DNA from: a virus
DNA: 64,000 bases
Virus record (IMG/VR): IMGVR_UViG_3300016472_000923
Direction: 5' to 3' (one strand)
The notes beneath the pieces were generated by a model that saw only the letters and a list, made by a program, of their open reading frames with translations, ran no database searches and had not been told where the DNA came from. Shown here piece by piece: positions 2,431-39,265 of this stretch. The position numbers and the translations under genes are program-made. How positions within the stretch are numbered: position 1 is the stretch's first letter; every line of letters begins with the position of its first letter.

Positions 2431-2868
2431 TCATTCTACTCCTGATTGTTTCAAATATTCCTTGATGTCTTTTTTATCCGTGATAGATGCCAGGGCATCG
2501 ATGTCTGACATTTTCATGTTTGGATATAATTCCATCAGTGCTTTCTTGATTTCGTTGCTGCCAGCTTCTTTTTTCTTGGGAGCGATCCACTGATGGCGAA
2601 GTGTGCCCATGCCCGGACTCACACTAGTGGCCATCAGCCACTGTAATTTTGGATGCCGGTTGACTGCAAAGAAATGTTTGTTCAGCCTCTCGTTAGTGGA
2701 CACGACATAGAACTCCTGCAGATCCCTTGATCCTTGCACGCTGGAGCCCCAACGGATCATGAGGTAGTTGCTGAATTTCTTGCGCTCTTCGTCAGTAAGG
2801 CTGTCATAGAAATGGCGGTTCTTGTTGTCGAACTGTGCCATTTCGTTTTGTATAGAAAGTTTATCCAC
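2431..2868 (-). CDS. Probable clamp loader small subunit (T4 gp62-like)
   Basis: 145 aa with NYLMIRWGSS and WIAPKKK motifs resembling the gp62 family; replication context. Confidence 0.55.
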   Translation of the reverse strand: MDKLSIQNEMAQFDNKNRHFYDSLTDEERKKFSNYLMIRWGSSVQGSRDLQEFYVVSTNERLNKHFFAVNRHPKLQWLMATSVSPGMGTLRHQWIAPKKKEAGSNEIKKALMELYPNMKMSDIDALASITDKKDIKEYLKQSGVE

Positions 2869-3055
2869 GGGCGATCTTGTTCAAGTGTACAGCGTGTCGA
2901 TCCAGTTTACTTTTCAAGCGCCTTATGTCAGTTTGTAGATCTCTGATCACGGCATCTTGCGCCTTGATTTGTTCTTTGAGATGCCGTATTTCAGCATCAA
3001 GATCGGATTTCTTTTCCGGCAGAGGACTTGATCCGCCTTTTTCATATTGTTCCAT
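2861..3055 (-). CDS. Small coiled-coil hypothetical protein
   Basis: Heptad pattern; tightly packed between neighbours. Confidence 0.55.
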   Translation of the reverse strand: MEQYEKGGSSPLPEKKSDLDAEIRHLKEQIKAQDAVIRDLQTDIRRLKSKLDRHAVHLNKIARG

Positions 3056-3056
3056 G

Positions 3057-3557
3057 TTACCAGGCCTTGTTATAATCCACTATCTCGCAGTTGCGACTGA
3101 TATCCTTGACAAAGTAGATGCATTCCGGTTCACTTTCGGACCCTAGAGGCACGCACAGCATCTGTCCGTTCTTGAGTTTGGGCGCATACCAAGACACTTC
3201 ATGATACACATCTACGATCTCAATGTCGAGGAAACTGGGACGGAAACTGGTCAAAGGATTGAACTGGAAAACTTTGAATCCACGATCGTTGATCGAAGTC
3301 AAAGGCAGCATCTCTAGATCTCCTAGATCTGGTTCGCCGATCAAGACTTGCCAATCCACAGGCATCCTTACAGTGTGCTCTCCCACACGCAGCACCAAGG
3401 CCGGAGCATTGAAGCTTTCCAGGAAGATCAAAGGTATGTAATGATAATCAGGGTTGCTAGGATCTGAATTGTCCAGTATGGCGAAACGCATGTCGTCTAC
3501 CTCTTCGGGCAGAGTATCGAGTTCGTAAGGGGTATTGTCTAAGGTTAATATACGCAT
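3057..3557 (-). CDS. Hypothetical phage protein
   Basis: 166-aa ORF directly behind a sigma70-type promoter. Confidence 0.65.
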   Translation of the reverse strand: MRILTLDNTPYELDTLPEEVDDMRFAILDNSDPSNPDYHYIPLIFLESFNAPALVLRVGEHTVRMPVDWQVLIGEPDLGDLEMLPLTSINDRGFKVFQFNPLTSFRPSFLDIEIVDVYHEVSWYAPKLKNGQMLCVPLGSESEPECIYFVKDISRNCEIVDYNKAW

Positions 3558-3563
3558 GATTTT

Positions 3564-3591
3564 ATTATAACAAATTTTATCTTGATGTCAA
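3564..3591 (-). promoter_or_regulatory. sigma70-type promoter, probably leaderless
   Basis: TTGACA-16-TATAAT with extended -10 TG; ATG only 6 nt downstream, no SD. Confidence 0.7.
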
Positions 3592-4184
3592 TGATTTCTT
3601 CCCAGCATCACTGAAAAAGATCCTGGTTCCGATTCGACTTCTAATATTTTCCAACCCATGGCCTGCAGATATACCACCGTGGGACCGCACTTGCCGGTCC
3701 AAGTACCATCTGACAGCATCAAAGTATCATCACAAATCACTATGCCATTTTCTGACATGTGAGGGAGCAGATGTATCATTTGCGATAGATGCTCCATCTG
3801 GCTATTGCTATTGGTAAGACTGATCCCAAACTTATCATGATATTCTATCTTTTGTTGATCAAATATGTGTTGGAACTTCTTATTATTCCAATCCCAATCA
3901 AAGTTATCAAGATATAGCAAGGCTATCTTTTGATCTAGTCCGGGGAACACATCGCGTGCCCATTGACTGCCGGACATCTGTACGCCGACCACGCCCGGGA
4001 TATATCGGAAAATCTCAGCCCTATCATCAATGTCTACTGAATAAAGAATCGTGCCAAGATTTTGGGCCACAGCATTTAGAAAATGTGTGGATCCATCCCA
4101 CCCCTGAGATGCTCCAATCTCTACGAATACATCAGTGGCGCCAATGTGCTCGATGGTCTGTGATTTCTTGTATAGATTACCCAA
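3588..4184 (-). CDS. Class I SAM-dependent methyltransferase (Methyltransf_24-like)
   Basis: FVEIGAS, YSVDID, LLYLD, IVICDDT motifs. Confidence 0.75.
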   Translation of the reverse strand: MGNLYKKSQTIEHIGATDVFVEIGASQGWDGSTHFLNAVAQNLGTILYSVDIDDRAEIFRYIPGVVGVQMSGSQWARDVFPGLDQKIALLYLDNFDWDWNNKKFQHIFDQQKIEYHDKFGISLTNSNSQMEHLSQMIHLLPHMSENGIVICDDTLMLSDGTWTGKCGPTVVYLQAMGWKILEVESEPGSFSVMLGRNH

Positions 4185-4809
4185 ATTGTTTCTCTAAGAT
4201 AGTCCGGCAATGCTGTGCGAATCCCGATTGCCATTCTACGCTGTCCACATGATAACCAGGGCGGGGCTTGAACATGCCACTGGTTGCTAGATTTAATGAA
4301 ATTTCATGGCTGCGGAAATCGTCGAGCATGAGATGGTTCCAGGGATGCAGAGGTTTGGCTGGATTATTGCTCAGTCCGTTGAGCACGAAAGCAAATGCTA
4401 TATTTCTACGCTGTAACTCTACAAGACAACAACGGACCATGAGATAACTCTTTATCTCCATCATGTCGCTGCAGGTCGTCGCCTGATAATACCGCACTGC
4501 CATGGATCGATCAGGATCTCTATGTATATGTCCATTGCTGAGCCATCGATATGGAGGTTCATGTGTGTCCACAGGCATTGGCTGATCATTCACAAATTCC
4601 AATCTGTCTGGCATGGTCCATCCTGATATCACTGCATCGGGCTTGTGTTCTAATCCCTGCCAGAGATTATAAGCGATGATGGCATTGCTCATGCCCGACT
4701 GGGCATGATTTATAACTTGATATTCCGAGAGCATTTCGCTCCAGTGTTGGCCAGGAAACTCCGGATCTCTTTGCATGAAACTATCACCTACTACCAACAA
4801 TCGTTTCAT
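4177..4809 (-). CDS. SGNH/GDSL hydrolase-like protein
   Basis: LLVVGDSF, NHAQSGMSN and a C-terminal His; likely start MKRLL. Confidence 0.65.
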   Translation of the reverse strand: MKRLLVVGDSFMQRDPEFPGQHWSEMLSEYQVINHAQSGMSNAIIAYNLWQGLEHKPDAVISGWTMPDRLEFVNDQPMPVDTHEPPYRWLSNGHIHRDPDRSMAVRYYQATTCSDMMEIKSYLMVRCCLVELQRRNIAFAFVLNGLSNNPAKPLHPWNHLMLDDFRSHEISLNLATSGMFKPRPGYHVDSVEWQSGFAQHCRTILEKQFG

Positions 4810-6266
4810 TTCATCCATTCCAGTTTTTCATGGGTGAATGGATATCTAGCATCTTTGTAGTAGGCCTTGCGTTTGGTCAGATGCCTTTTTGCAAACTTAC
4901 AAGTCGATGTAATATCCCATATCTGTACGAAGTCTTTATCTTCCGCTTTGCGTATCCCACGGCCAATTGACTGGATAACACGCACAAAAGACTTGCCAGG
5001 CTCAACAAGCACCAGATTAAAAATACGGGGAATGTTAATGCCAACCGCAGCAACTCCATAGGTAGCCACAATGATTTTGTCTGTTGCCTCAGCCACTTCG
5101 TCATAGTGATCTTGTCTTTCTCCAGCCTTGGTAGCACCGGATATGAATACCGCGTTCGGCAATCTATTTACCAACTCCTGGCCCGGGGCGATGCGGTCAA
5201 CCAACACCAAGGTATTGCCGGTCTTGTTGACTTCGGCAATCAGCGTGGCCATGGTATCTAATCTGCCGCTCTCTTCCAACAGGTATTTGAGTTCGCTCTG
5301 ATAGTTGTTGTACTCCACATGGTCTACTAACTGCACGATGTTGACATGGCACTGTGCCAGCACTCCTCGATCCTGCAGTTCAGCAGCCGCCAGGCGCGAT
5401 ACCACAGGTCCCAAGCTCACATGTATGGCCTGGAACTCAAAGTCTTCCTTGGGCACAGTTCCTGTCAAACCCCACCGGATTGGCACTTGCGACATCACGC
5501 CAGTGAGCAAGGTTTTCAATGCATCAGCCTTGGCCATGTGTACTTCGTCCACTATCACACATACCACACCCTCCAAGAACTCCCCGATGGTGATGTCAGC
5601 AGATTGATTCTTGGTATTCTTCAGCAGGACATTAAGGCTCTGCCAAGTGCAGATGGTATGTTGGCGGCCGAACTCTTTCCTGTCCCCAAAGAACACACCG
5701 GTGTCTAGTCCGAGATTGACATAGTCCTTCTCGGTCTGTGTGACCAAGCTCTTGTTAGGCACTATGACGATGCTACGACCATAGGGCGTGACAGCATGAC
5801 TCAAGGCCGCGGTCATCACGGTCTTGCCAGCACCCGTGGCCACTTCTTGTATGCACTGTGGATTGGCCAAGAAGTCATTGATGATCTCGATCTGATAGTC
5901 ACGGAGAGAAACAGGTTCTCCAGCTTGGGGATGCCCTTTGGGCCAAGTGTACTGTGAAAATGTATCCTCTACCACTGGAGTAAATTCAAAAGTGGTGGTA
6001 TACTCTCTCTGGTCATCGAGCTCAACATCATAGTCATATTCTTCCAGCACTGGCAGGATCTCGGGCAACAGGTTCACATAAGTGGATCCACCCAGTTGGA
6101 AAAATGATACCTTGCCGTCCCAGCGTCCTAATCTCACAGCGGGCAGATAGCGAGCGTAAGGTACATCGTACTTGAATTTGTTCACTAGAGCTCGTCTGGC
6201 ATCCAGTTCCAGTCCTTCGATTTTGACATTGACTTCGTCACGGATTATCAAACGGGCTTGTCTCAC
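4806..6266 (-). CDS. uvsW: UvsW-like SF2 DNA helicase
   Basis: LRDYQ, ATGAGKT, VDEVH, GLTGT, QSIGRGIR. Confidence 0.92.
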   Translation of the reverse strand: MRQARLIIRDEVNVKIEGLELDARRALVNKFKYDVPYARYLPAVRLGRWDGKVSFFQLGGSTYVNLLPEILPVLEEYDYDVELDDQREYTTTFEFTPVVEDTFSQYTWPKGHPQAGEPVSLRDYQIEIINDFLANPQCIQEVATGAGKTVMTAALSHAVTPYGRSIVIVPNKSLVTQTEKDYVNLGLDTGVFFGDRKEFGRQHTICTWQSLNVLLKNTKNQSADITIGEFLEGVVCVIVDEVHMAKADALKTLLTGVMSQVPIRWGLTGTVPKEDFEFQAIHVSLGPVVSRLAAAELQDRGVLAQCHVNIVQLVDHVEYNNYQSELKYLLEESGRLDTMATLIAEVNKTGNTLVLVDRIAPGQELVNRLPNAVFISGATKAGERQDHYDEVAEATDKIIVATYGVAAVGINIPRIFNLVLVEPGKSFVRVIQSIGRGIRKAEDKDFVQIWDITSTCKFAKRHLTKRKAYYKDARYPFTHEKLEWMK

Positions 6267-7075
6267 AGTGTTATTCTTTTAGGATATGTTAAGTTTTGGA
6301 ATCTTGATTCTAGTACCTGCACATCATCAACCACTCCAATTGGAATTATAGCAGACATTTCCCAAGGTTGCCAACCTGTTTGATTCCAATGTTGACACCA
6401 GTCATTTTTGAAGGGCTCAAACCATTGATTGAATCCATCGATGTTTTTTGGTTTGACCATGCCATCAAGATCGATGTGCATCACAGGCTTCAGCCAGATC
6501 CAAGGTTTGGCCAATTCACAGATACGCCGGAGATCGGCCGGTTCTCTGTCACAGAAATATTGATAAGGAGTCTTGCCCAGCTCATGCTGATGTAGGAAAC
6601 ACAGGCCAGGGTATGTTGTTGTTTGAGCGTATTCCAGGAATGATCTGTCAAATGGTTTGATCAAAGGTCCGGCCGCTGGCCCATAGTCAAACCAAACATC
6701 AGTATGGCTGCGATTGTTCTTGTTTTTGTCTTCCAACAAATGGATTATATCATGCGCTTTTAACCAGGTTGCATCTTCTGGATTTTGGCTGAACTGGGAT
6801 ACATAGATGTCATGCAATCGATTCAGATATTGCTGATCATGTAAAAGATCTGGATTGATCTCCTCCGCGGACGCCAACCTACAATCAAGCAAAAGTTCGA
6901 TCAATTCTTGCCGGGATTGTGCGTCTGATTCATAGGGGTTCTCTCTAGCACCAAATCTAAGATCCACATGCCGCAGATGTTTTATGCAACCATGGTAATA
7001 GTGTGCTACGGGGTTGTCAAACAATTTCACTGGTACCTTGAGACCATCTGACCAGGTGATGTAAACTTCGGGCAT
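6263..7075 (-). CDS. Hypothetical protein (apparent paralog of 26043-26960)
   Basis: Shared DQxxLNRxH, IHxLE, [LV]G[KR] and PIG motifs. Confidence 0.6.
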   Translation of the reverse strand: MPEVYITWSDGLKVPVKLFDNPVAHYYHGCIKHLRHVDLRFGARENPYESDAQSRQELIELLLDCRLASAEEINPDLLHDQQYLNRLHDIYVSQFSQNPEDATWLKAHDIIHLLEDKNKNNRSHTDVWFDYGPAAGPLIKPFDRSFLEYAQTTTYPGLCFLHQHELGKTPYQYFCDREPADLRRICELAKPWIWLKPVMHIDLDGMVKPKNIDGFNQWFEPFKNDWCQHWNQTGWQPWEMSAIIPIGVVDDVQVLESRFQNLTYPKRITL

Positions 7076-28110: not shown

Positions 28111-29787
28111 TTAGCCTTTTGCTAGTTCTACCAAACGACGGAAATCCGATCGGTCCAGGCTCTCAGAACTCATGTTGCTGGGTTTGGTCATCATCACGCC
28201 ATCACAGTCAAGGTCTTCGTGCGTGGGTCTGGACTCGATGGTCTGGGCTATTTCGGCCACGCGACTTTCGGGCATGCCACTGGTGCCGCGGACTCTGGGC
28301 TGCCGGAAAGCATAGTAGAAACTGAAGATGCCACCGGTGATGGGATCGCGATAATACAAGGTATCGCTGTATTCTTCTTCGGCTGGACGCAAATGCTCTA
28401 CTCCGGGCAGCACATCAAAATTCACCGAACCAAGTTCATGTATGTCACCTTCCGTGGGAGGTAGCTGGATATCAACCAGTTCGAATTGAGCCGAGCCTTC
28501 GCCCAAGGGTTGGTCCATGGCTCCACCGATGGGTGTGCCAAAACTTTTTTCTTGTATGGTCTGGGTGGGTTCTGTGGGCGTTGGCAATTTAATGCCCATT
28601 TCAGCCATGCGCTGCTGGATAATGGGTCGGGCATCGGCATCGGGATCTTGCAAACTTAGATCTCCCAAACGATCGAATAATTCATCGTCACCGATGAGGT
28701 CATATAGTTGTTCTGTGGCATTGACTGCATCGGGGCCCACGGGCAGAGGTTCAGCCATGATCTCTTCGAGTCGGGCCAGTTGTTCAGCAGTTTCAGGCAG
28801 GCTCCAAGTGGCTTCCGTCATTGTGTCAGCCCAGGATTCAAACTCTTGCACTTCTTTCATCACTGGTTGTTTGATCAAGCGGGTGAGAATAGGCAGTGCC
28901 TCTTCGATCCTACTGTCCAATGTCTGTTCCAGGAACATCTCACGGATCTCGTTCACGGTGTTTTCACTGCTGCACATCTGATCTGGCCGCCATGCATCTC
29001 GGCTTTCTTGGTACCCACGGCTGCCCATCATGCGGTGGGCCTTGGCCCGCATTTCCTGATAATGTTCTCGTGCAGATTCAACCAGACCATTGGCTGTTTC
29101 GTTGAGGCTACGACCCCGGCTGGCACGGAGGAATCTGCTCAAGGTAGCTAATTCGGATACCATCTCCGTGATATGCTGACCAAACGCATCGTACGGCGTT
29201 CCGCCCTCGGCCACATGTCGTGCCAGCATTTTGCCATGCATGAGGCTGCGGCTGGGTACCCGGAAACGCTCTCCTTGATCGGTCTCTATGAAAATAGAAT
29301 CGATATTGCGATATCTGGCTTCACCTTCTTCTAGAGGCCTGCTGTGCTTGATGACCAGTTTGGTCTTTTTTGGCTGATCGCTGTAACTCACTTTACGATT
29401 GCCGTAGTACCCTTCAAAGAGTCCTTCTTTGATGGCAGCCATGCCTTGCATGGTATATTTTAGTCTGTTGATGTTGTTGAGATTGAATGTCAGCATGTTG
29501 CGGCTGGCAAACTGCTTCATCTGCGCTAGGAAATCATACCAAGCCTGGCGATCTTCGCTGTCCATGGCCCTGCCAAGGTTGTCACCATAATAGACTTCCA
29601 TGTCATTGTCTGCACCCAGTAAAACAACCACAGTACCATAATTTTTATTGGCAGTTTTCCAATCAAAACTGAAAAGCTCAGCTTCAGCAGGATCAGTGAC
29701 CGATTTGCCTGATGCATCAAGGATTTCGGGTTCAAAATCTCTAGTGACCAAGAGATAGTACAAGGAGTTAGCAGCAGAATTGTCCAT
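28111..29787 (-). CDS. Putative virion head-associated/internal protein
   Basis: TAAATA 6 nt upstream (29794-29799); acidic; several I/L-x-E sites; C-terminal RRLVELAKG. Confidence 0.5.
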   Translation of the reverse strand: MDNSAANSLYYLLVTRDFEPEILDASGKSVTDPAEAELFSFDWKTANKNYGTVVVLLGADNDMEVYYGDNLGRAMDSEDRQAWYDFLAQMKQFASRNMLTFNLNNINRLKYTMQGMAAIKEGLFEGYYGNRKVSYSDQPKKTKLVIKHSRPLEEGEARYRNIDSIFIETDQGERFRVPSRSLMHGKMLARHVAEGGTPYDAFGQHITEMVSELATLSRFLRASRGRSLNETANGLVESAREHYQEMRAKAHRMMGSRGYQESRDAWRPDQMCSSENTVNEIREMFLEQTLDSRIEEALPILTRLIKQPVMKEVQEFESWADTMTEATWSLPETAEQLARLEEIMAEPLPVGPDAVNATEQLYDLIGDDELFDRLGDLSLQDPDADARPIIQQRMAEMGIKLPTPTEPTQTIQEKSFGTPIGGAMDQPLGEGSAQFELVDIQLPPTEGDIHELGSVNFDVLPGVEHLRPAEEEYSDTLYYRDPITGGIFSFYYAFRQPRVRGTSGMPESRVAEIAQTIESRPTHEDLDCDGVMMTKPSNMSSESLDRSDFRRLVELAKG

Positions 29788-29802: not shown

Positions 29803-31368
29803 TCAACCCATGGTCATAATGAAGGGCAAGGGTTCAACCAGAGACTCATTGTGATCACGCATGTGATCGTCCAGTTCTTTGTGATAGTCTTGCAAGATGA
29901 TCAGCATGCGCACGGCCAGCACAGTGGCCATGACAAGATCGTCGGTTTCTCCGGGTTTGGCAGCATAACTGGTGCCCGCGGCCACGAAATTTTTGAGTTC
30001 TCCTACCAGGCTTCGGCTGTGTATGCGCATCCTGTTGCTTTCCACGAGATGCTTGAGTTTGGCGCAGGCTGCCAGCTTGGGTTTGTGCGTGGTATTGAAC
30101 CCTTTCCTGTAACGACGGCTGCCGCCGCTGGGTTCAGACAGAAAGTACCCCTTGATGTTTTCCTCACCGTACTCTGCGATAGAAATCAAAGCAGCTTCGC
30201 CGATGGAATTATTCTCTACTGAGTAGTAGATGCTGTTTTCTGTGCCTATTAGATCATAGATGTGCTGCACTATGTTGGATAATATCCTGATCTGTGTAGG
30301 AATATCAGTCCTATTGTGGCGCCATTCGGCCACTTGTTCGGTGCTGTTGGCTTCAAACACCTGTATGGCTGCAGGATCTCCGCCAGTGCCCAGGCTGGGA
30401 TCAAGAGCGATGACATAGATCCTATCTCGTTGCGGTTTTTTATACCAGCGTACTTCGCCGGTCTTGTATTCAGGATCGCGCCCGGCGAGATCGATCAGCT
30501 TTGCTGGAGCGATAAGAGTTTCATCAGCGATGATGAATTCACAGTCCATCTCTCTGCGGAAGCGATCGGGACCCAGAGCCGCACGTTGTTGTTGCGCCCA
30601 AGTTTCGTCACGGTCGGGATGTTCGTGCCAGAAACTGCGATAAGCACGGAATCCATTCTGACCCACTTCTGTGGGATTGCCATACTCATCTTCCATCCTG
30701 TTGGCACCTTTCCACAGCAAGGCGAACTGATCTTCGTCTGAGTTGGGGGTGCTAGTGATGATGGCCTTACCACCAGTGGCCAGGGTGGGTGATATGGAAG
30801 TCCAGAATTCCGTGGCTATAGTGGGTCTCACAAAGGCAAACTCGTCTGCGTATAAGAGCGAGATACTCATGCCTCGGCCGGTGTTTTCAGTTGTGGTGGC
30901 CGAAACTATGCGACTGCCGTTGTCAAATGTGAGACTGCCTTTGTTGTAGTCCACTGCCCCTGCCCGGATGTGATCGGGCACCGATTCATAGGCGTAGCGT
31001 ATCCTTTGCATGATCTCTTGGCTACCAGTGTATTTGTGGGCGGCCACCAGGATGGTTGAATCTGGAACGAACATGGCATACCACAGGAGATAGCCAGCAG
31101 CTGAAGTCGATTTTCCGGTCTGCCTGGGCATCATTGAGATTGAAAAACGATAGTTGTGGTAAGTTTCTATCAATCTCTTTTGATAATCAAAGGGATGATA
31201 CATCATGCGACCGCGAGTGGGATGCTGGATATAGAAGAAGTTGTCCATGAAGTACATAGGGCCTGAAACAGGATCCGCGCACCGACGGAACTCTTCGATT
31301 TGTTCAGGTGTATAGACTTGACGAGTGTGTGGTGCTTTGACCAGCACTACTTCATTGGCTTTGCCCAT
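29803..31368 (-). CDS. gp17: Terminase large subunit
   Basis: YQK, PRQTGKST, YADEFAF, ITSTPN, ALDPSLG.GGD, DDLVMA; TAAATA at 31374-31379. Confidence 0.96.
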   Translation of the reverse strand: MGKANEVVLVKAPHTRQVYTPEQIEEFRRCADPVSGPMYFMDNFFYIQHPTRGRMMYHPFDYQKRLIETYHNYRFSISMMPRQTGKSTSAAGYLLWYAMFVPDSTILVAAHKYTGSQEIMQRIRYAYESVPDHIRAGAVDYNKGSLTFDNGSRIVSATTTENTGRGMSISLLYADEFAFVRPTIATEFWTSISPTLATGGKAIITSTPNSDEDQFALLWKGANRMEDEYGNPTEVGQNGFRAYRSFWHEHPDRDETWAQQQRAALGPDRFRREMDCEFIIADETLIAPAKLIDLAGRDPEYKTGEVRWYKKPQRDRIYVIALDPSLGTGGDPAAIQVFEANSTEQVAEWRHNRTDIPTQIRILSNIVQHIYDLIGTENSIYYSVENNSIGEAALISIAEYGEENIKGYFLSEPSGGSRRYRKGFNTTHKPKLAACAKLKHLVESNRMRIHSRSLVGELKNFVAAGTSYAAKPGETDDLVMATVLAVRMLIILQDYHKELDDHMRDHNESLVEPLPFIMTMG

Positions 31369-31372
31369 GCAG

Positions 31373-31588
31373 CTATTTAATGGGTTTTTCGCCGGTGAGA
31401 TAGGGAAGACTGAACCAAAGCTGGAACCATTCAGGGGTTCCTGGTTCTATGTTGTGTTTTTTTTGTAATCGAGCTTTTTCAGTGCCAGTCAAGGATATGT
31501 TGCTGCCTTCGGGGGTTTTGCGGAGACTGTTGCCATATCCTTGTGTCCGAACACCAGCCAGTCGCTGCAGATCTTCTATTGACACCAT
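31373..31588 (-). CDS. Small hypothetical protein with LxRLAG motif
   Basis: EDLQRLAGV; IEPGTPEWFQLWF. Confidence 0.6.
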   Translation of the reverse strand: MVSIEDLQRLAGVRTQGYGNSLRKTPEGSNISLTGTEKARLQKKHNIEPGTPEWFQLWFSLPYLTGEKPIK

Positions 31589-32022
31589 GATTGTTTAGCA
31601 TCGCCGTAGTATTCGCGTGCCAGACCATTGGCGATGAGACCGGCACGCACGCTCTGTCCATCTACGATGATGTCGCCTAGCACACGACCACCAAACTTGT
31701 CCCAGGCGTAGAGGGTGACCTGGAACTTCTGTCCACGACCGATCAGGGCCTTGGTCCACTGGCTGGCCTGTTCGCCACGCTGCGCTTCTGACGGGCACTG
31801 GGCACGATGGCCTTTTTCTGGAGTGTCCACACCATAGATCCTCACAGCCAGTTCAGGCTTGAGAGGCGCTGGCAGGAAGCGAGCAGAGATCACGATGGTA
31901 TCTCCATCGCTCACACGCAAGACCTGGGTGTCATAGGTCACCCCTTGTGGTGCTTTCTGTGCATGGGCCGATCCCATCATGGCTAAAATAGTGAATATGA
32001 TTGCAAAGATTTTCCCCATCAT
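31576..32022 (-). CDS. Thermonuclease (SNase-like) with predicted signal peptide
   Basis: VSDGDT, VRIYGVDTPE, DKFGGRVLG, GLAREY; N-terminus KIFAIIFTILAMMGSAHA. Confidence 0.88.
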   Translation of the reverse strand: MMGKIFAIIFTILAMMGSAHAQKAPQGVTYDTQVLRVSDGDTIVISARFLPAPLKPELAVRIYGVDTPEKGHRAQCPSEAQRGEQASQWTKALIGRGQKFQVTLYAWDKFGGRVLGDIIVDGQSVRAGLIANGLAREYYGDAKQSWCQ

Positions 32023-32029
32023 CGATCCT

Positions 32030-33358
32030 TTAGTTAGAAGCTTCTTCCCATCCAAAATTATACAGCACATCACCGTTGTTTTGGGTATAGGCCACCACGA
32101 GACTCAAGGTATCGCTCACACCATCAACATCGCGGCCCAACTGTAATCTGCGTCTGACATCCTCCGATATTTCTACTTCGTCTCGGCTAGAACTCAAACC
32201 ACTGTAGACCATAGTACCGTCACCGACCTGGAATCTAGCTTCATTGGTCTGCACCACTGAATTTGTGACATTGGCCCATTGGGTGTTGGCTATGGCGTTG
32301 CTGGCATTGAGTATCAATTGGAACTGACCATATCTCACATCGATGGGCAAGAGATCGATCTGTGATGGAACCACGGCAGCATCAGGATAGGCATTGCCCA
32401 AACGGATGCTGGCTAGATTGAACTTGACATTACCTGTAGGTACCTTGTATGCAGTGGTTCCATTGGTCACATACTGCACCGTGGTCACGGGATTGTAACC
32501 ACCTTCTGATATCACGGTGCTGCAGATCTGCCGCATGGTGGCAGCACCGGCCGTAGCAGCGGTATTGGTTATCTCGTATCTGCAGTTCAAGGTAGCCGTG
32601 GTCATGTACACATTGGTGTTGCCGGCCTGGTTGGCATGATTGAACACATGGCAGATATAGAATACGCCGTTGATCACGAATCCCACTCGCACTGAACCCA
32701 CGCCTAGCCATTCTATGTCAGTCCAGAAGATCTGTGTCAGCGTGGGATCTAGTGTGATACCCGAAGGCCCCGACCCATCCATGGGGTCTTGGTTCCAATC
32801 GGCCTGGGCTATGCGGGTGTTGACCACAGACCCCGTGACCGAACTACGGATCACCATGTAGAGATCCGCACCATCGGCTTCGAAATATACACCATTGCCG
32901 GAAGTGAAGTAGCCCACTCTCTGCCGGCAACCTGCTTGCAAGGTGCCCATGGCAAAGGTGTTCATGATCAAGAGGCTTTTGCCGGGCTGATAGACCTGCA
33001 CTGTGCGACACTGGCTGATCACAGAGTCGCCGTTGGCACCGGTCACGGCCATGGTGAACGAACTGGAGTTGGCATCATAGGTGAAAGCACCAGACCCAGC
33101 GGTTTTCTGGGCAAACTGATTGCCATTGAGATAACGGTTCTGGCTGTCAAACAGCGTGAAGGGCTGGGTTACTCGCAGACGGCCAAACGCATCAGTGCCG
33201 GTGTTGCCATTGATTACAGTGTTGCCATAGCCCGAGGAACCTGTGGACACCCGGATGATGGGCTGGCCAGCAGCATTATAGTCCATGGCCTGATGCAGGT
33301 CATTGAGCTGATAGTTGGGAAACGGATGCTGGTAGTCAGTGGGCCCTTGGATGCTCAT
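32030..33358 (-). CDS. Hypothetical beta-rich protein, probably virion-associated
   Basis: DAFGRLRV, YQPGKS, EWLGVG motifs; head-region context. Confidence 0.55.
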   Translation of the reverse strand: MSIQGPTDYQHPFPNYQLNDLHQAMDYNAAGQPIIRVSTGSSGYGNTVINGNTGTDAFGRLRVTQPFTLFDSQNRYLNGNQFAQKTAGSGAFTYDANSSSFTMAVTGANGDSVISQCRTVQVYQPGKSLLIMNTFAMGTLQAGCRQRVGYFTSGNGVYFEADGADLYMVIRSSVTGSVVNTRIAQADWNQDPMDGSGPSGITLDPTLTQIFWTDIEWLGVGSVRVGFVINGVFYICHVFNHANQAGNTNVYMTTATLNCRYEITNTAATAGAATMRQICSTVISEGGYNPVTTVQYVTNGTTAYKVPTGNVKFNLASIRLGNAYPDAAVVPSQIDLLPIDVRYGQFQLILNASNAIANTQWANVTNSVVQTNEARFQVGDGTMVYSGLSSSRDEVEISEDVRRRLQLGRDVDGVSDTLSLVVAYTQNNGDVLYNFGWEEASN

Positions 33359-33729
33359 CTAGGATATCCCCGGAATGCTTTCACAGGACTTGTTGTACCT
33401 GTGTCTGCGGTCTCTTGACTATTTCGGGTTCCCACTAATTTTTTGCCGCCTTTGATGCCAGCCAATTTCAGGGCTCGATCAATGAGTTCATCTTCGTTTT
33501 CCAAACTCGAGATCACAGCATATTCTCCAAATGCGCCTTCCTCTGCAAATTCCGGAAGATTAGCAGGAACATCGCCTGCGCGGGCGCGGGCCAATGCCAG
33601 TCCAAATCTGTAGGTTTTATAAGGATCTTGGCTGGTGAGCCCAGGAATCACATAGGTGTTGGCCAATGCGCTCTGCTGACTGGGATCTAGTTTTCCCATT
33701 TGCTCGGTTATGAATTCTCTGGCTCGCAT
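33355..33729 (-). CDS. MRAREF/GYPR-family putative capsid-internal protein A
   Basis: MRAREFITE...SPVKAFRGYPR; TATAAGTA 7 nt upstream. Confidence 0.65.
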   Translation of the reverse strand: MRAREFITEQMGKLDPSQQSALANTYVIPGLTSQDPYKTYRFGLALARARAGDVPANLPEFAEEGAFGEYAVISSLENEDELIDRALKLAGIKGGKKLVGTRNSQETADTGTTSPVKAFRGYPR

Positions 33730-33739
33730 AATATAATAC

Positions 33740-34474
33740 TTATACCTTTTGCTGGATCTGATCAGCCCAAGCCGTGGTACTGAGCCAGCGTTGATAGATC
33801 GAATCTGCTGTGCGTTGATGCTGTGCCAAATATGGCTCTATGCCTGAGATTATGCCTGTGCTGTCCTGAACTGTGTCGTACTGTGTTCTTGCCTCTGCCC
33901 ATAGTGGATCCTCGTCATGGGCCCAGGCTTGTGCTTTGTCCGCATCCATCTCGATATGGAACTGCATGGCTAGATGTGGTCCCATGCTCCAGGCTTGATT
34001 GGGACAAGCAGGGCTAGATGCCAACTTTGTTGCGCCTGGGGGCAAGTCAAACGCTTCATAGTGCCACTGTATCACCACAGGAGTGGGATCGTCTCCAAAC
34101 CAATCTTTCACAGCAGGATCATCAGTGTAGGTTATAGGCTGCCAACCTATCTCAGGCCTAGGACTGGTTTTGATTTCGGCACCCAACGCACGGCTCATGA
34201 GTTGTCCTCCCAAACAGTGTCCTATCACGGGGATATCATTGAGGACGGCCTGCAGAATCAGGATCTCTGCCTGACGGTTGCTGAGCAAGGGATCGTTTGA
34301 ACTCATACCACCGCCCATCACAGCCAGTGCCGAGAATGGCTCTATGCTGGAAGGAAATTCTTCGCCGTCACCAGCATTGCGGATTTCATAATGGATGCCT
34401 TTGCGATCCAACCAGGTACGGAGATAAGCTGCTCGTTCAGGAGTTTGATGCTGGAGGATCAGTACGGGCTTCAC
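33740..34474 (-). CDS. Class I glutamine amidotransferase-like hydrolase
   Basis: MGG, GHCLGGQL, EIGW, QWHYE, QFHIE (Cys-His-Glu triad). Confidence 0.92.
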   Translation of the reverse strand: MKPVLILQHQTPERAAYLRTWLDRKGIHYEIRNAGDGEEFPSSIEPFSALAVMGGGMSSNDPLLSNRQAEILILQAVLNDIPVIGHCLGGQLMSRALGAEIKTSPRPEIGWQPITYTDDPAVKDWFGDDPTPVVIQWHYEAFDLPPGATKLASSPACPNQAWSMGPHLAMQFHIEMDADKAQAWAHDEDPLWAEARTQYDTVQDSTGIISGIEPYLAQHQRTADSIYQRWLSTTAWADQIQQKV

Positions 34475-34486
34475 AGTTGAGCCCGA

Positions 34487-34885
34487 TTAGCGAGGATAAC
34501 CTTTGAAACCTCGGACAGGACTGGTCTTCTGCACCCAGTCGGCTTCGGTGCTGCGATTGTCGGTGATCTTTCGCACTTCGCCAGCACCCACCATGCGTGC
34601 TGCTGCATTCACTATCTCTAGATCTGCATCACTGTAAGTTGCAAGTAGTGGGTCGCCAGCAAAAGCACCAGCGGGTTCTGTCATGTGATCAGGAGCGCCA
34701 GCCATGGCTATGCCAAAACGCCATTGGGTGTAGGGACTGCCGCCTTGCTTGTTTTGGCTGATGTCGGGCATGCTGATCAAGCCCTTCATGGCAGATCTCT
34801 GCGATTTAGGCAGTTTTTTGGCATTGGCAGGCACATCTTCTGCAGCGCCAAATCGGGCTTCGTTAATAAATTCGCGTGCTCGCAT
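34487..34885 (-). CDS. MRAREF/GYPR-family putative capsid-internal protein B
   Basis: MRAREFINE...SPVRGFKGYPR; ATG overlaps the Ntn hydrolase stop. Confidence 0.65.
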   Translation of the reverse strand: MRAREFINEARFGAAEDVPANAKKLPKSQRSAMKGLISMPDISQNKQGGSPYTQWRFGIAMAGAPDHMTEPAGAFAGDPLLATYSDADLEIVNAAARMVGAGEVRKITDNRSTEADWVQKTSPVRGFKGYPR

Positions 34886-35760
34886 CACTGATCTTTCATT
34901 TTCATCTGGGCAAACGGAGGATCTCCCTGCACATTCTGCCATAGTTCACGATTACCTAATATCTCTACCCATACATTGGTGTGGGGTTTGTTAAGCCGCC
35001 AAAAGTCAAAATCTATGTGACTGCTGACTGGTCGGCAATACAATGTGCGTTCTTTGGGCACACATAGTTGCTGACTAGTTGTACGCATTTTCTTCCTAGC
35101 AGTGCTATACCTCATGATATTTAGTTGTGGGTGGTTGATGTAAACTTGACACATGCCATCTACTAGATCCTGTGGTCGTTTGGCTGCTTCAACCAACGCT
35201 TGAGCTTGTGCTAGTCGACTTTCACTGCTGATCCTGCCCAGCGTCTCGCTTTCGTCGTTGAGATTGCGTTGATAGCCAGCATCTTTGATCCAAAGGCCGT
35301 GATTGCTGCGAGCCACTGTGTCGCTGGGATCAATCTTTTTGACCACATAGCGATATGGTGCGGTACCATCATCGTCCGTGGCTTCAATGAGATAGCAGTC
35401 GTCTTGATTGAATACCATGGTACATCCGCCCAACTCACGCTCGATCAGCAATTTCACAGCATCTTGGGGATCGCGAAACAACAAAGCCCGGGCTATGATC
35501 CTGCCATCGGGGCTAGAGTCTGCTGTGCCGGCTTCTACTTCAGTCTCATCGTCATAGACATCAAGGCTGGTGTTGAGTATGCTGAGTCCAGTGCTGTTGA
35601 TACCTTCTTTGTAGCCAGTGACTTGATCATGCATCATCATGCGATTGATGTTGTGGCTGTTGTCTTCAATGAAATCCAGTGTAGGAGTATAATTTCTATC
35701 GCGGTTCTTGGCACCGGCCCATCCTATGCCAGGAAAGTACTTGGCGACGATGATGCACAT
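34885..35760 (-). CDS. Ntn-hydrolase-like protein (NRDE/TANGO2 or peptidase C45-like)
   Basis: N-terminal MCII (Cys2 nucleophile), KNRDR, EGIN..G, RSNHG, SSESR. Confidence 0.7.
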   Translation of the reverse strand: MCIIVAKYFPGIGWAGAKNRDRNYTPTLDFIEDNSHNINRMMMHDQVTGYKEGINSTGLSILNTSLDVYDDETEVEAGTADSSPDGRIIARALLFRDPQDAVKLLIERELGGCTMVFNQDDCYLIEATDDDGTAPYRYVVKKIDPSDTVARSNHGLWIKDAGYQRNLNDESETLGRISSESRLAQAQALVEAAKRPQDLVDGMCQVYINHPQLNIMRYSTARKKMRTTSQQLCVPKERTLYCRPVSSHIDFDFWRLNKPHTNVWVEILGNRELWQNVQGDPPFAQMKMKDQ

Positions 35761-35762
35761 GG

Positions 35763-36143
35763 CTATCTGGGATAACCGCGGAAAGGTTTTACGGGACTGG
35801 TAGCGTTGGTACCGTTGGGCTCAAGGCTGCCCGGACCGATGGTCTCTTGTGGCTTCATGCCCAGTTTTTTAAGTATGGCTTTGAGTTTGATTCTGTCAGC
35901 ATCGGTATAGGCCGAAAACGCTGGCAGATTACCAAAGAAACTGATGGTGTCAACCTTGTCTAGTTCTTCGGGATCCATGCCAGCTAGTGTGGCTACTCGA
36001 TAGAAGTCATAGTAGCGACCCCAGTAGGTGTCACCATTGCCGCCAGGGCCAATCATGCCCGGATGTGCCATCTCAAATTCGTGGCGAGCGTCGGCCCTTT
36101 GACCTTGACGCTTGCCTTCGGTGACAAACTCCTTGGCTCGCAT
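35763..36143 (-). CDS. MRAREF/GYPR-family putative capsid-internal protein C
   Basis: MRAKEFVTE...SPVKPFRGYPR. Confidence 0.65.
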   Translation of the reverse strand: MRAKEFVTEGKRQGQRADARHEFEMAHPGMIGPGGNGDTYWGRYYDFYRVATLAGMDPEELDKVDTISFFGNLPAFSAYTDADRIKLKAILKKLGMKPQETIGPGSLEPNGTNATSPVKPFRGYPR

Positions 36144-36152
36144 ACGAATATT

Positions 36153-36437
36153 TTAGCTGGGCTGCCGTACTGCTCGACTACCGCTGGTCTGGGTACCTAT
36201 TTCTTGGGCGGTAAAATTAGAACCTATGATGGTTAGTTGATTACCCACTCCCACCCAGACATCTGAAGCTGTATAAGCAGGAATAGATGATGCATTGCTG
36301 AAAATATTGCCTGTGGTTGGTGTTCCAGTTATCATGTTGACATTGTAAGTGACGGCTGTGTTACCAGTTGAGATCCTGCACTTGTCGGTGGTCCAGGCCA
36401 GAGCCGAAACTGAAGTATAGACATTTGCTTGAGACAT
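36153..36437 (-). CDS. Small S/T/N-rich beta protein
   Basis: 94-aa ORF; SD AAGGA. Confidence 0.55.
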   Translation of the reverse strand: MSQANVYTSVSALAWTTDKCRISTGNTAVTYNVNMITGTPTTGNIFSNASSIPAYTASDVWVGVGNQLTIIGSNFTAQEIGTQTSGSRAVRQPS

Positions 36438-36452
36438 TATAATTTTCCTTGT

Positions 36453-37547
36453 TTACCAAGCCCGGCACGACCAGTAGCGTGCTTTGGTCCTTGGTCCTGG
36501 ATTGTCGCAGCGATGCCGGGCACGGAAACTACGCCGTCTCGCTGGGTCACTTTTTTTGATCTTCATGGTCTTCTGACCAGCACGTTTGGCCGAAGTACCG
36601 CCGTGACCAAAGTTTACTTTTTTCACATTACCAGTTTTGGGATCTTTGACATAGACTTTGAACTTCTTGACATCGCCACGCATGGGCTTGCCCAGAGGTA
36701 CTTTGCGACCACGATATTCGGCTTCGCCGATGGGATCTTCTTCACTGGTAGTATCATTGTCCACTCCGGTCTCTTGATAGCCGGTTTCTTGTTGGGTAGG
36801 ATCTTCGTCAATTGTGGTTACTTTATCAGTATCTCCGTCGGCGCCCACAGGAGCCAGTGCTGCAGCTTTTGCTGCCAACGGATCGGTGGTATTGGCTTCT
36901 TCTTCCATGCGTGTGCAGCCAGCCAATTCCAACATGCGGCTCATGAAATCTTCCGCTACAGGTTCTGCGGGTTCAGCCGGTGTGTCAATGTCACCATCAC
37001 CATAGTCGTCAACGATCTGATCCATCATGATCTCTAGGATGTCTTCCTGCTGATCGTCGGGGTGAAGCCGATTGTGTTGTGCTACCTTGGCAAACATGTT
37101 TTCGAGATAGGACTGAGTGGCCTGGCCCATCTTACCGTTGAAAGCATCATACAGCATGTCAAAGTCTTCGCTGCTGGCGATGTTTTGCAGGTCGATGTCA
37201 ATCTCGCTCATCACACCTTCGTCCAATTCTTCTTCTCGCTCGTCGCGTCCAGCACCGTAATCTTTGGTTTGTGGGTGAGTGTTAGGATCAACATCACTGT
37301 CTTCGTTGGTAAATCCCATAGCACGACTGTTGCCCACGGCACCATAACGAGCAATGTCTTCAACGATTTCGCAGCCAAAAGATTCAAGCAAGGCTGTCAC
37401 AGCATCGTCGCCGTAGATAGTCACAGAATCCTTTGAGGCTTCTAGCACATAGCTTTCTAAAAGACTGTCTGGTGCCAGTTCTATATCCAACTCGTCACCG
37501 GGCTGGATGTTTTCAACAAGATCGATATAATGTTTTAGTCCCGGCAT
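36453..37547 (-). CDS. Acidic head-region protein with a basic C-terminal domain (DUF6321-like)
   Basis: C-terminal EAEYRGRKV...KKVNFG...SFRARHRC...ARYWSCRAW. Confidence 0.65.
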   Translation of the reverse strand: MPGLKHYIDLVENIQPGDELDIELAPDSLLESYVLEASKDSVTIYGDDAVTALLESFGCEIVEDIARYGAVGNSRAMGFTNEDSDVDPNTHPQTKDYGAGRDEREEELDEGVMSEIDIDLQNIASSEDFDMLYDAFNGKMGQATQSYLENMFAKVAQHNRLHPDDQQEDILEIMMDQIVDDYGDGDIDTPAEPAEPVAEDFMSRMLELAGCTRMEEEANTTDPLAAKAAALAPVGADGDTDKVTTIDEDPTQQETGYQETGVDNDTTSEEDPIGEAEYRGRKVPLGKPMRGDVKKFKVYVKDPKTGNVKKVNFGHGGTSAKRAGQKTMKIKKSDPARRRSFRARHRCDNPGPRTKARYWSCRAW

Positions 37548-39265
37548 TATTTGTTCCCGTAGCGTTGATAGAGAGCCCAGAGGCTTTGCTCTTTGGCTTC
37601 GGCCAGTTCTGGTGCATGGATGGCACCCTGACGACCAGGATCGCGATTGAACGGTGCGCCTGTGGTTTGACCTGTGTTTTTGCGACCGTTTAGTCCGCCA
37701 CTTAAATCATTGACCATAGTGTCTGTGTCGTATGTCTGCTCTTCGGGACTGTTAGCTAAATCGCCTTCTTCTAGGCTTTCTTCACAACCACAGGGTATAT
37801 GCCCGCATGTGGGACAGGCTTCTTCGTAACCATGGGAGGATTCCATGCCAGCCAGTTTGAGGATCTGTGCCAGTTTGACAGCATCATCTTCTGTGGCGTT
37901 GACGCTCAGGCTCTTCTCGCCATTCTCGCCCATGCTCATGTTGATGCTCATACCTTCGTTCAGCACTGTTTTGAGCTTGTTGTCAAAACTTTCTGCGATG
38001 GCGCCTTCATAAACACCTTTGCCAAAAATGCCTTTGGATTTGCCGCCAGCAGGGGCAGTGGCTACACTACCGGCTACTGTGGTTTCTTCCACTTCTTCTT
38101 TGTCTTCGTCTTTGGCTTCAGCAGTCTTCTTGGCCTGTTTGGTAGCAGTGGCATACATCACGGCCTCGCCGCGATCGCCATAACGCTTTTCAAATCCAGC
38201 CTTGTCTTTCTTCATCGACTTGACGATCTCTTCACGCTTTTTCATCTCAGATTTGGTGAGTTCACGCTCGGGGATTACTTCTTCGTCGCCAGTGACTTCC
38301 ACATCCATCTCTTCTTCGCCTTCGGGGCGATTGGCTTTGAGGTAATCGCGAGCACTATCGATATACTCTTGAGCGATAGCGATCTTTTTCTGTACCCACT
38401 CAGGCAGATTCTCGTCGGCATCTAGGATGTCTTGCAGTTCTTTGGCAGCGTCTTCAATGGTACGAGCTTGACTCATGGCCATCTCGCCTTCTTCATCGTA
38501 CTCGTCCTTGTCGTAGTCTTCTTCCAGTTCTTCTTTGCGGACATTGGTCTTGCCACGGGCACCCATCTTCTTACCTGTGCCTTTGGGACGACCACGACCA
38601 CGCTTGACCACTCCACCTTCGTCGTCTACTTCATCATTGCGATCCACGGGTTCCAGTGTTGTGACACGACGGCGTCCATCGATGTCTTGGAACCGCTTGC
38701 GGCTACCATCTCGGAATGTCACCGTGTAGTCATCTTCACGACCATCTACATCTGCACCTATTTTACGATACATCATTTTCTTGTCAAAGAAATCAACGAA
38801 GCTTTCTTCGATCTGGCTTTCATTCATCTGTGCTTTTTCATCACTGGTGTCACCAGTGACTTTGTAGGTTTTTCCGTCGATAGAAAATGTAGGTTTGCCA
38901 GCTCGGATGGCATCCAACCGAGCTTTGGTAAAGTCGTTGCCTTCTTCCATGTCTTCTTCTTTGATCTTGCCCCACTTGCCACCGTGTGCTTGTTTAGCAC
39001 GGATAGCAAAATTGAGTTCAGCGGTCTTGCCTTTGAGTTCGTCGGGCACCTTCTCGCCACGCTCACGATACTTTTCTGTCTTGTCAAGATTTGCTTTCTT
39101 CATGGCCTTGAGATCGCCGATGTCTTTGCCTTTGTATTTGCCACGCTCAGCAGGATTTGTCTTGATGGGAGGTTCAATCTTTTCAGCCACCTGCTCAACG
39201 CTTTCGTTGAGATTTTTCTTCTCAACTGAGTTGAGTTTAGCGAGGATGTCGTACATGTTGTTCAT
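37547..39265 (-). CDS. Highly charged putative head-internal/core protein with AT-hook
   Basis: E/K-rich; many xxE sites; KRGRGRPK; LKLAGM; CPTC..PCGC. Confidence 0.6.
   Translation of the reverse strand: MNNMYDILAKLNSVEKKNLNESVEQVAEKIEPPIKTNPAERGKYKGKDIGDLKAMKKANLDKTEKYRERGEKVPDELKGKTAELNFAIRAKQAHGGKWGKIKEEDMEEGNDFTKARLDAIRAGKPTFSIDGKTYKVTGDTSDEKAQMNESQIEESFVDFFDKKMMYRKIGADVDGREDDYTVTFRDGSRKRFQDIDGRRRVTTLEPVDRNDEVDDEGGVVKRGRGRPKGTGKKMGARGKTNVRKEELEEDYDKDEYDEEGEMAMSQARTIEDAAKELQDILDADENLPEWVQKKIAIAQEYIDSARDYLKANRPEGEEEMDVEVTGDEEVIPERELTKSEMKKREEIVKSMKKDKAGFEKRYGDRGEAVMYATATKQAKKTAEAKDEDKEEVEETTVAGSVATAPAGGKSKGIFGKGVYEGAIAESFDNKLKTVLNEGMSINMSMGENGEKSLSVNATEDDAVKLAQILKLAGMESSHGYEEACPTCGHIPCGCEESLEEGDLANSPEEQTYDTDTMVNDLSGGLNGRKNTGQTTGAPFNRDPGRQGAIHAPELAEAKEQSLWALYQRYGNK

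Follow-up and report, generated by a model that had tools for sequence, protein, structure and literature searches.

We analysed a 64,000-nt stretch of the IMG/VR record IMGVR_UViG_3300016472_000923 (hereafter the window), in which a five-gene locus on the minus strand (33355-36143) encodes three small paralogs of 124-132 amino acids, given the working name PAR, that alternate with two enzymes. PAR copy 1 (A-type, 126 amino acids; 35763-36143) carries the N-terminal leader MRAKEFVTE and the C-terminal tail TSPVKPFRGYPR, ending in FRGYPR. It is followed by a Cys2 N-terminal nucleophile (Ntn) hydrolase of 291 amino acids with a Met-Cys start (34885-35760), classed as C45 / isopenicillin-N-acyltransferase-like by fold modelling and Foldseek comparison. 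PAR copy 2 (B-type, 132 amino acids; 34487-34885) has the leader MRAREFINEARFGAA (MRAREFINE) and the tail TSPVRGFKGYPR, which closes with FKGYPR. The second enzyme is a stand-alone class I glutamine amidotransferase (GATase) of 244 amino acids with a GTG start (33740-34474), recognised by PF00117 and its triad motifs. PAR copy 3 (C-type, 124 amino acids; 33355-33729) combines the leader MRAREFITE with the tail TSPVKAFRGYPR and again ends in FRGYPR. The five genes are tightly packed: the stop codon of the Ntn gene overlaps the start of PAR copy 2 (TGATG), and the stop of PAR copy 3 overlaps the start of the following gene. Coordinates and strand were confirmed for all five open reading frames (ORFs), in agreement with the alternating layout given in the initial annotation of this DNA.

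The three PAR copies share 27-34% identity overall, and their 24 invariant columns are clustered at both ends, with M-R-A-[RK]-E-F-[IV]-x-E opening the protein and S-x-E...TSPV[KR]xF[RK]GYPR at the C-terminus. The internal motifs described earlier, a Y..(Y/W)R core and, in two copies, Y(T/S)DAD, are also present. In a six-frame scan of the 64 kb, leader and tail were each found exactly three times, solely in the three PAR ORFs. The codons of the conserved ends differ at synonymous positions among the copies, and selection therefore acts on the protein and not on the DNA; on the same ground, we rejected a role of the ends at the DNA level, for example in recombination or coupling. A profile built from the three copies retrieves more than 2,560 proteins, all unnamed, and more than 300 IMG/VR loci, with 188 PAR copies in the 80 loci examined and orthologues of copy 1 at 60-91% identity. 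Both ends are kept across 151 unique family members, and in 110 of these S-x-E stands 21 residues before the C-terminus. No PAR family exists in Pfam, PHROGs or NCBIfam, and matches in the protein atlas are confined to unnamed viral clusters. The family is thus very large and unnamed, and its carriers are uncultured T4-like jumbo phages. Its genes always reside in a variable island that separates neck/tail-completion genes from the large terminase gene. Its order runs from acidic proteins through a 94-aa ORF and the PAR array to optional genes (Ntn, GATase, a 442-aa structural protein, SNase), with the terminase last. The 51 non-redundant complete islands that make up our co-occurrence sample contain one to four tandem PAR copies, and up to five tandem matches occur elsewhere.

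The family leader, M-R-A-x-E-F-[IVL]-x-E, is close to the capsid-targeting sequence that T4 internal proteins IPII and IPIII carry. Placed side by side with the T4 N-termini MKTYQEFIAEARVGAG, the B-type leader MRAREFINEARFGAA is the closest. The T4 internal proteins are cut once, beside the leader MKTYQEFIAE (PMC8442874; PMC3012670), and this cut is made by the T4 prohead protease gp21 (Mullaney and Black 1996, cited in PMC8442874; PMC3012670). A degenerate DNA pattern of the leader matched only ipII, ipIII and gene 61.1 in T4, and no match to it was found in the phages PA5oct and Atu_ph07. Gene 61.1 (NC_000866 18966-19130), the sole T4 match that is not an internal protein gene, encodes 54 amino acids beginning with MKTFKEFIKE. 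When a relaxed leader pattern was searched at start codons across about 220 related loci, the gene strand gave 403 matches and the opposite strand gave none. The leader is also portable, being present on at least ten distinct non-PAR proteins of the same island, among them a NT5C nucleotidase (295 amino acids, in the close relative L044), a DUF6267 protein and a cytidylyltransferase-like protein. In the distant phage L047, six consecutive unrelated genes (2469-6769) have leader-like N-termini, namely MRIRELLEG, MLLRELFLKE, MNLRQLFES, MRAKEFITE, MKMRELLNE and MKIKELLEG. The complete genome of a relative, G002, has a single further leader-bearing ORF, located a long way from the island (148624-148812, plus strand); its 62 amino acids start with MRASEFIVE and include neither PAR body nor tail.

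The leader ends in a gp21-type motif, and [LIV]xE terminates at residue 9-10 in 148 of 151 PARs. Within the PAR bodies of the same 151 sequences, [LIV]xE is avoided, with 63 occurrences observed vs 135.6 ± 10-11 expected (z −6.6). No depletion was detected for the control motifs [LIV]xD, [LIV]xQ and [FYW]xE or for the reversed motif. Five of the six controls were neither depleted nor enriched to a comparable degree; enrichment (+4.0) was seen for [LIV]xK, as also for [AGS]xE; the [AGS]xE control takes in the conserved S-x-E. Such avoidance fits proteins that are cut once and then survive in a protease-filled prohead. A T4-like head module encoding both a Peptidase_S77 (gp21-type) protease and a Gp23-type capsid protein is present in all five large relatives examined, two of which are 99-100% complete at ~340 kb. 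The capsid protein of these relatives has YL[KR]E at the position of the T4 gp23 cleavage site FLTE, and the gp22-like scaffold contains many [LIV]xE sites. Taken together, the T4 likeness, portability, strand control and motif avoidance give comparative support to the earlier proposal that the N-terminus addresses the capsid, and the nonamer is probably a T4-type capsid-targeting sequence.

The second conserved element, the tail, follows the pattern SP[VIL]-basic-x-F-basic-G-Y with one to three further, mostly basic residues; a distant PAR clade has ...NKYGV in its place. The tail was found only on PARs, both in the window and in the genomes of two relatives, and it always occupies the extreme C-terminus, fused forms included. 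Of 257 pairs of paralogs from the same genome, 66 agree in their final four residues vs 25 expected, the maximum in 1,000 shuffles being 42, and in example loci all copies end uniformly in FAGY or in FQGY. This agreement among the paralogs of one genome suggests that a single common partner reads the tail, for which a docking role would be weakly favoured; DNA binding by the basic-aromatic tail would be the alternative. A second protease site at S-x-E that would free the tail was considered unlikely, as Ser and not Leu/Ile stands at P3 and Pro often follows the Glu. We further observed a fusion of PAR core and tail behind other enzymes, in which they form the C-terminal end of larger proteins (including P0241-P0249) whose N-terminal parts are Peptidase_M78, cytidylyltransferase-like, ParB-like or DUF3008. 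An intact internal MRAKEF leader separates both parts in L047, P0247 and P0248. In L047, the fusion for which genomic context was seen, a cytidylyltransferase-like protein runs directly into the PAR.

Based on these features, we consider it moderately probable that the PARs are expressed late and travel as cargo in the head of an uncultured T4-like jumbo phage, as functional analogues of the T4 internal proteins. The first step of this mechanism, the nonamer M-R-A-x-E-F-[IVL]-x-E acting as a capsid-targeting sequence, rests directly on sequence comparison, and we infer all later steps. The leader would take the PAR into the scaffolding core of the prohead, where a gp21-type (S77) prohead protease would make a single cut after Glu9. 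The PAR body, about 115-123 residues, would remain in the head with the DNA. The C-terminal tail (S-x-E, then SP[VI]-basic-x-F-basic-G-Y-x-basic) would be kept on the mature PAR, most likely docking on a single phage partner common to the PARs or on DNA. Late expression is presumed from gene position because the canonical T4 late box TATAAATA, which occurs twice in the 64-kb window, is absent from the PAR island. TAAATA-type boxes lie upstream of several neighbouring genes, and two of the PARs are preceded by variants only.

Several observations weigh against a head-cargo role. The residue after Glu9 is often Gln and not the small residue preferred by T4 gp21. The PAR profile scores 13.5 bits against T4 IPII, mostly from the leader, and has no match to IPI and IPIII. 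PAR isoelectric points are bimodal and range from 4.5 to 9.7, so that the proteins are not all basic like the T4 internal proteins, and the paralogs fall into conserved orthologous groups, in contrast to the internal proteins of T-even phages, which change fast. The structural model of the PAR is middling (pLDDT 70, pTM 0.37), and with this model the body gave no fold match in BFVD or among 48,161 PDB representatives (best Z 2.2). Nucleotide and tblastn searches of GenBank phages with the region and all three PARs returned no match, the tblastn search covering 50,697 phage records. Protease and capsid genes were located in the relatives, the head module of this genome lying outside the window. 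Finally, the depletion and tail-concordance statistics rest on related sequences, and the control motifs therefore carry more weight than the z value.

Both enzyme assignments in the initial annotation proved correct. For the hydrolase, the AlphaFold model is confident (pLDDT 86.6, pTM 0.87), and its best Foldseek match is the isopenicillin N acyltransferase 2x1e (E 4e-8, probability 1.00, TM 0.55-0.62). Other close structures include choloylglycine hydrolases, NAAA and penicillin V acylase. Against the PDB, 55 chains were matched at E <= 1e-3, and the 35 of these listed are almost all Ntn-fold proteins. Cys2 and K18-N-R-D-R22 are invariant in 30 Ntn sequences, and a Met/Val-Cys start is found in all 120 copies of the window's Ntn clade with a recognisable Cys motif (121 scanned). 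At the sequence level, the protein has no Pfam match at E 0.1, no PHROG match and no profile match to PDB sequences, and it scores 23 bits against NCBIfam C45_proenzyme (NF040521), below the cut-off of 85. The family comprises 492 clusters at 50% identity in a library that carries no taxonomy; the nearest protein-atlas clusters are 96-100% viral, and the family is apparently borne by phages. Tail and lysin-like genes adjoin the Ntn gene in L290.

Many Ntn relatives differ at the N-terminus, where a short propeptide (6-20 residues) ending in [LI]xE directly precedes the catalytic Cys. Among distant relatives with a propeptide, a hydrophobic-x-E precedes the Cys in 19 of 43 and Ala in 17 of 43. 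IMG/VR examples such as MNIIQE/C and MDTKLNE/C have no PAR within 5 kb (37 loci), and one complete genome with a propeptide-bearing Ntn also encodes an S77 protease. The cultured Chryseobacterium jumbo phage MA9V-1 has an Ntn homologue starting MTSANNNEFLNE/C, with FLNE before the Cys, and an S77 domain in its genome. Since [LI]xE lies directly before the Cys, a gp21-type cut would create an active N-terminal nucleophile; the prohead protease may thus unmask the Ntn nucleophile, and autoprocessing is an equally ordinary explanation. In MA9V-1 (L259:1474-7910, gp179-gp184), an 889-aa neighbour of the Ntn contains 15 [LIVMFA]-N-E sites vs 1.8 expected, and several Ntn neighbours begin with ...[IK]NE; this motif looks like the cleavage motif of the MA9V-1 S77-type protease. 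Ntn-like domains also occur within very large proteins of 600-2,400 amino acids (P0337, P0354, P0355, P0359 and others), often after a 5-residue leader ending in Ala (MTREA/C, MPRTA/C).

The amidotransferase is supported by PF00117 at 37.5 bits vs a cut-off of 22.8 and by a match to PDB 3m3p (E 5e-40). Its Cys-His-Glu triad is found in canonical motifs, with Cys87 in GHCLGG and His173 and Glu175 in FHIE, and its NCBIfam match is PRK07053-like (E 9e-37, below cut-off). The gene lies in another context in 7 of 18 loci, and we regard it as a mobile accessory gene whose place in the variable island is incidental.

The surrounding genes place the window close to the Pseudomonas jumbo phage PA5oct, with 52% identity between the large terminases. 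From the adaptor/sheath genes to the terminase, both are collinear except for the inserted PAR island. The insertion extends from the 572-aa acidic protein through the last PAR and lies between the tail-completion genes and a gp281-like structural protein. Upstream, on the minus strand (36153-39265), acidic proteins of 572 and 364 amino acids and a 94-aa ORF precede the PAR array, as they do in most related loci. The 364-aa protein (within 36453-39265) matches phrog_7595 at its C-terminal end and has 10 [LIV]xE sites vs 5.0 expected. Downstream, also on the minus strand (29803-33358), are a 442-aa virion structural protein (phrog_1645), an SNase-like nuclease, a conserved 71-aa ORF and the large terminase. 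A 558-aa structural protein after the terminase (28111-29787, minus strand) contains 19 [LIV]xE sites vs 9.9 expected; judged by these sites, it and the 364-aa acidic protein may be prohead-protease substrates. The 442-aa protein (32030-33358, minus strand) is PA5oct gp281-like and occurs in 21 of the 51 related islands, and gp281 was detected in PA5oct virions by mass spectrometry, according to its record. It was rejected as the major capsid protein, given that a Gp23-type gene lies elsewhere in the relatives and that the 442-aa gene is missing from G002 and G003. The 71-aa ORF (31373-31588, minus strand; …GSNISLTGTEKA…EWFQLWFSLPY.TGE), between the SNase-like gene and the terminase, is kept in 43 related loci, and a relative of it is found inside the PAR array of L047 (5603-5830).

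How the enzymes relate to the PARs bears on the interpretation given in the initial annotation, namely that the tail is a substrate trimmed, ligated or deamidated by the Ntn hydrolase and/or the GATase. The genes are translationally coupled, a PAR adjoins the Ntn gene in 79 of 80 loci, and all 29 interior B-type PARs lie at most 1.6 kb from an Ntn gene, all of which speaks for this interpretation. The annotation had itself suggested a survey of co-occurrence and synteny, in which paralogs commonly found without either enzyme would speak against processing. Among the 51 complete islands, 33 have PARs and neither enzyme, 12 have the Ntn only, and six have both Ntn and GATase. The complete 337-kb genome G002 encodes two GYPR-ending PARs and no Ntn or GATase anywhere. 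By the annotation's own test, the enzyme-processing reading is therefore not supported. Furthermore, GYPR is the commonest PAR tail with or without an Ntn gene and the tail spectra are the same, the GATase occurs in unrelated contexts, and at 42 loci with divergent Ntn homologues no PAR lies within 5 kb. We accordingly regard tail processing as the least probable of the explanations considered. The Ntn is best seen as an add-on that a single sub-lineage carries in tight linkage with the B-type PAR, and the two enzyme genes are optional accessory genes that form no tailoring system.

The tight Ntn linkage can also be read the other way around, with the PARs, especially the B-type, acting as carriers that bring the leaderless Met-Cys Ntn and fused enzymes into the capsid. 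The Ntn itself would then be head cargo, its activation wired to prohead maturation, and PAR core and tail would constitute a general retention/delivery module. A leaderless Ntn such as that of the window would be carried in by the leader-tagged PARs, with a B-type copy always adjoining. In favour of this, Ntn relatives with their own [LI]xE propeptide have no nearby PAR (the 37 propeptide loci and phage MA9V-1). The enzyme fusions also favour this. We predicted that every leaderless Ntn copy adjoins a PAR, but the prediction failed for a distant group (L260-L264), none of which has a PAR within 5 kb. In addition, depletion of [LIV]xE in the Ntn family is only mild (z −2.6), and the L290 gene lies in a tail and lysin-like context. 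We consider a carrier role improbable. Somewhat less so, and the most probable of the alternatives though itself unlikely, is that the PARs are accessory proteins of the prohead core or scaffold, imported by the leader to help assembly and then degraded or expelled, instead of being retained or delivered to the host. Such proteins would share the leader and protease evidence with a cargo role, and the conserved orthologous groups, the position beside highly acidic scaffold-like proteins and the site-rich 364-aa neighbour would suit them. The avoidance of [LIV]xE in the PAR bodies, however, fits protease survivors, unlike the site-rich gp22-like scaffold. Very improbable, in our view, is a non-virion role in which the ends serve oligomerisation, stability or late-gene regulation and the resemblance to the T4 leader arose by convergence or chance. 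The nearest cultured relatives PA5oct and Atu_ph07 lack such a leader, and T4 gene 61.1 matches the pattern and is not a known internal protein. Yet the leader is portable, heading proteins of a single island that are otherwise unrelated, the bodies of the PARs avoid the protease motif specifically, and the genes are located within a late structural cluster.

The PARs are best read as a new family of T4-style leader-tagged head cargo with an extra C-terminal tail; no new tailoring system is revealed. If this is true, a family that ranks among the commonest unnamed ones in freshwater jumbo phages is a head-packaged set of proteins bearing a T4-like address tag, and the capsid-targeting principle of T4 extends to a large uncultured clade. 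A leader combined with protease-motif avoidance in the body would then provide a sequence rule for capsid cargo in metagenomic phages. The analysis also flags a second, C-terminal address-like tail and an Ntn family whose nucleophile the prohead protease may unmask.

Among known systems, the T4 internal proteins (IPII/IPIII, also IPI and Alt) come closest. Both sets have a short N-terminal leader with an E-F-I-x-E core ending in an [LI]xE site, and both consist of small tandem paralogs, with a leader common to otherwise unrelated proteins, in a phage lineage that encodes a protease of the gp21 type and a capsid protein of the gp23 type. In contrast to the PARs, the T4 proteins have neither the conserved core nor the invariant tail at the C-terminus, and they form a hypervariable set where the PARs form stable orthologous groups. 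The bodies are not demonstrably homologous; the PARs are located in the neck-to-terminase region, half of them are not basic, and their packaging is a prediction. In phiKZ-like giant phages such as SPN3US, numerous head proteins enter as precursors that a gp21-related protease cleaves after x-E (PMC10052503). Their head cargo likewise includes paralog families, but the propeptides are mostly 111-254 residues long with A-x-E, compared with the 9-residue T4-type tag of the PARs (PMC10052503). The phage Ntn shares with the C45 / choloylglycine-hydrolase clan a predicted alpha-beta-beta-alpha Ntn fold, a Cys right after the initiator Met and an invariant N-R-D about 18 residues further on. It differs in having no Pfam match and an NCBIfam score far below cut-off, and its distant members have propeptides ending in [LI]xE or Ala, which are not the usual autoprocessing contexts. 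The phage GATase resembles PRK07053-like stand-alone class I GATases (PDB 3m3p) in its above-cut-off PF00117 match and canonical Cys-His-Glu triad, and differs from them in that no partner synthase domain lies nearby and its genome position varies.

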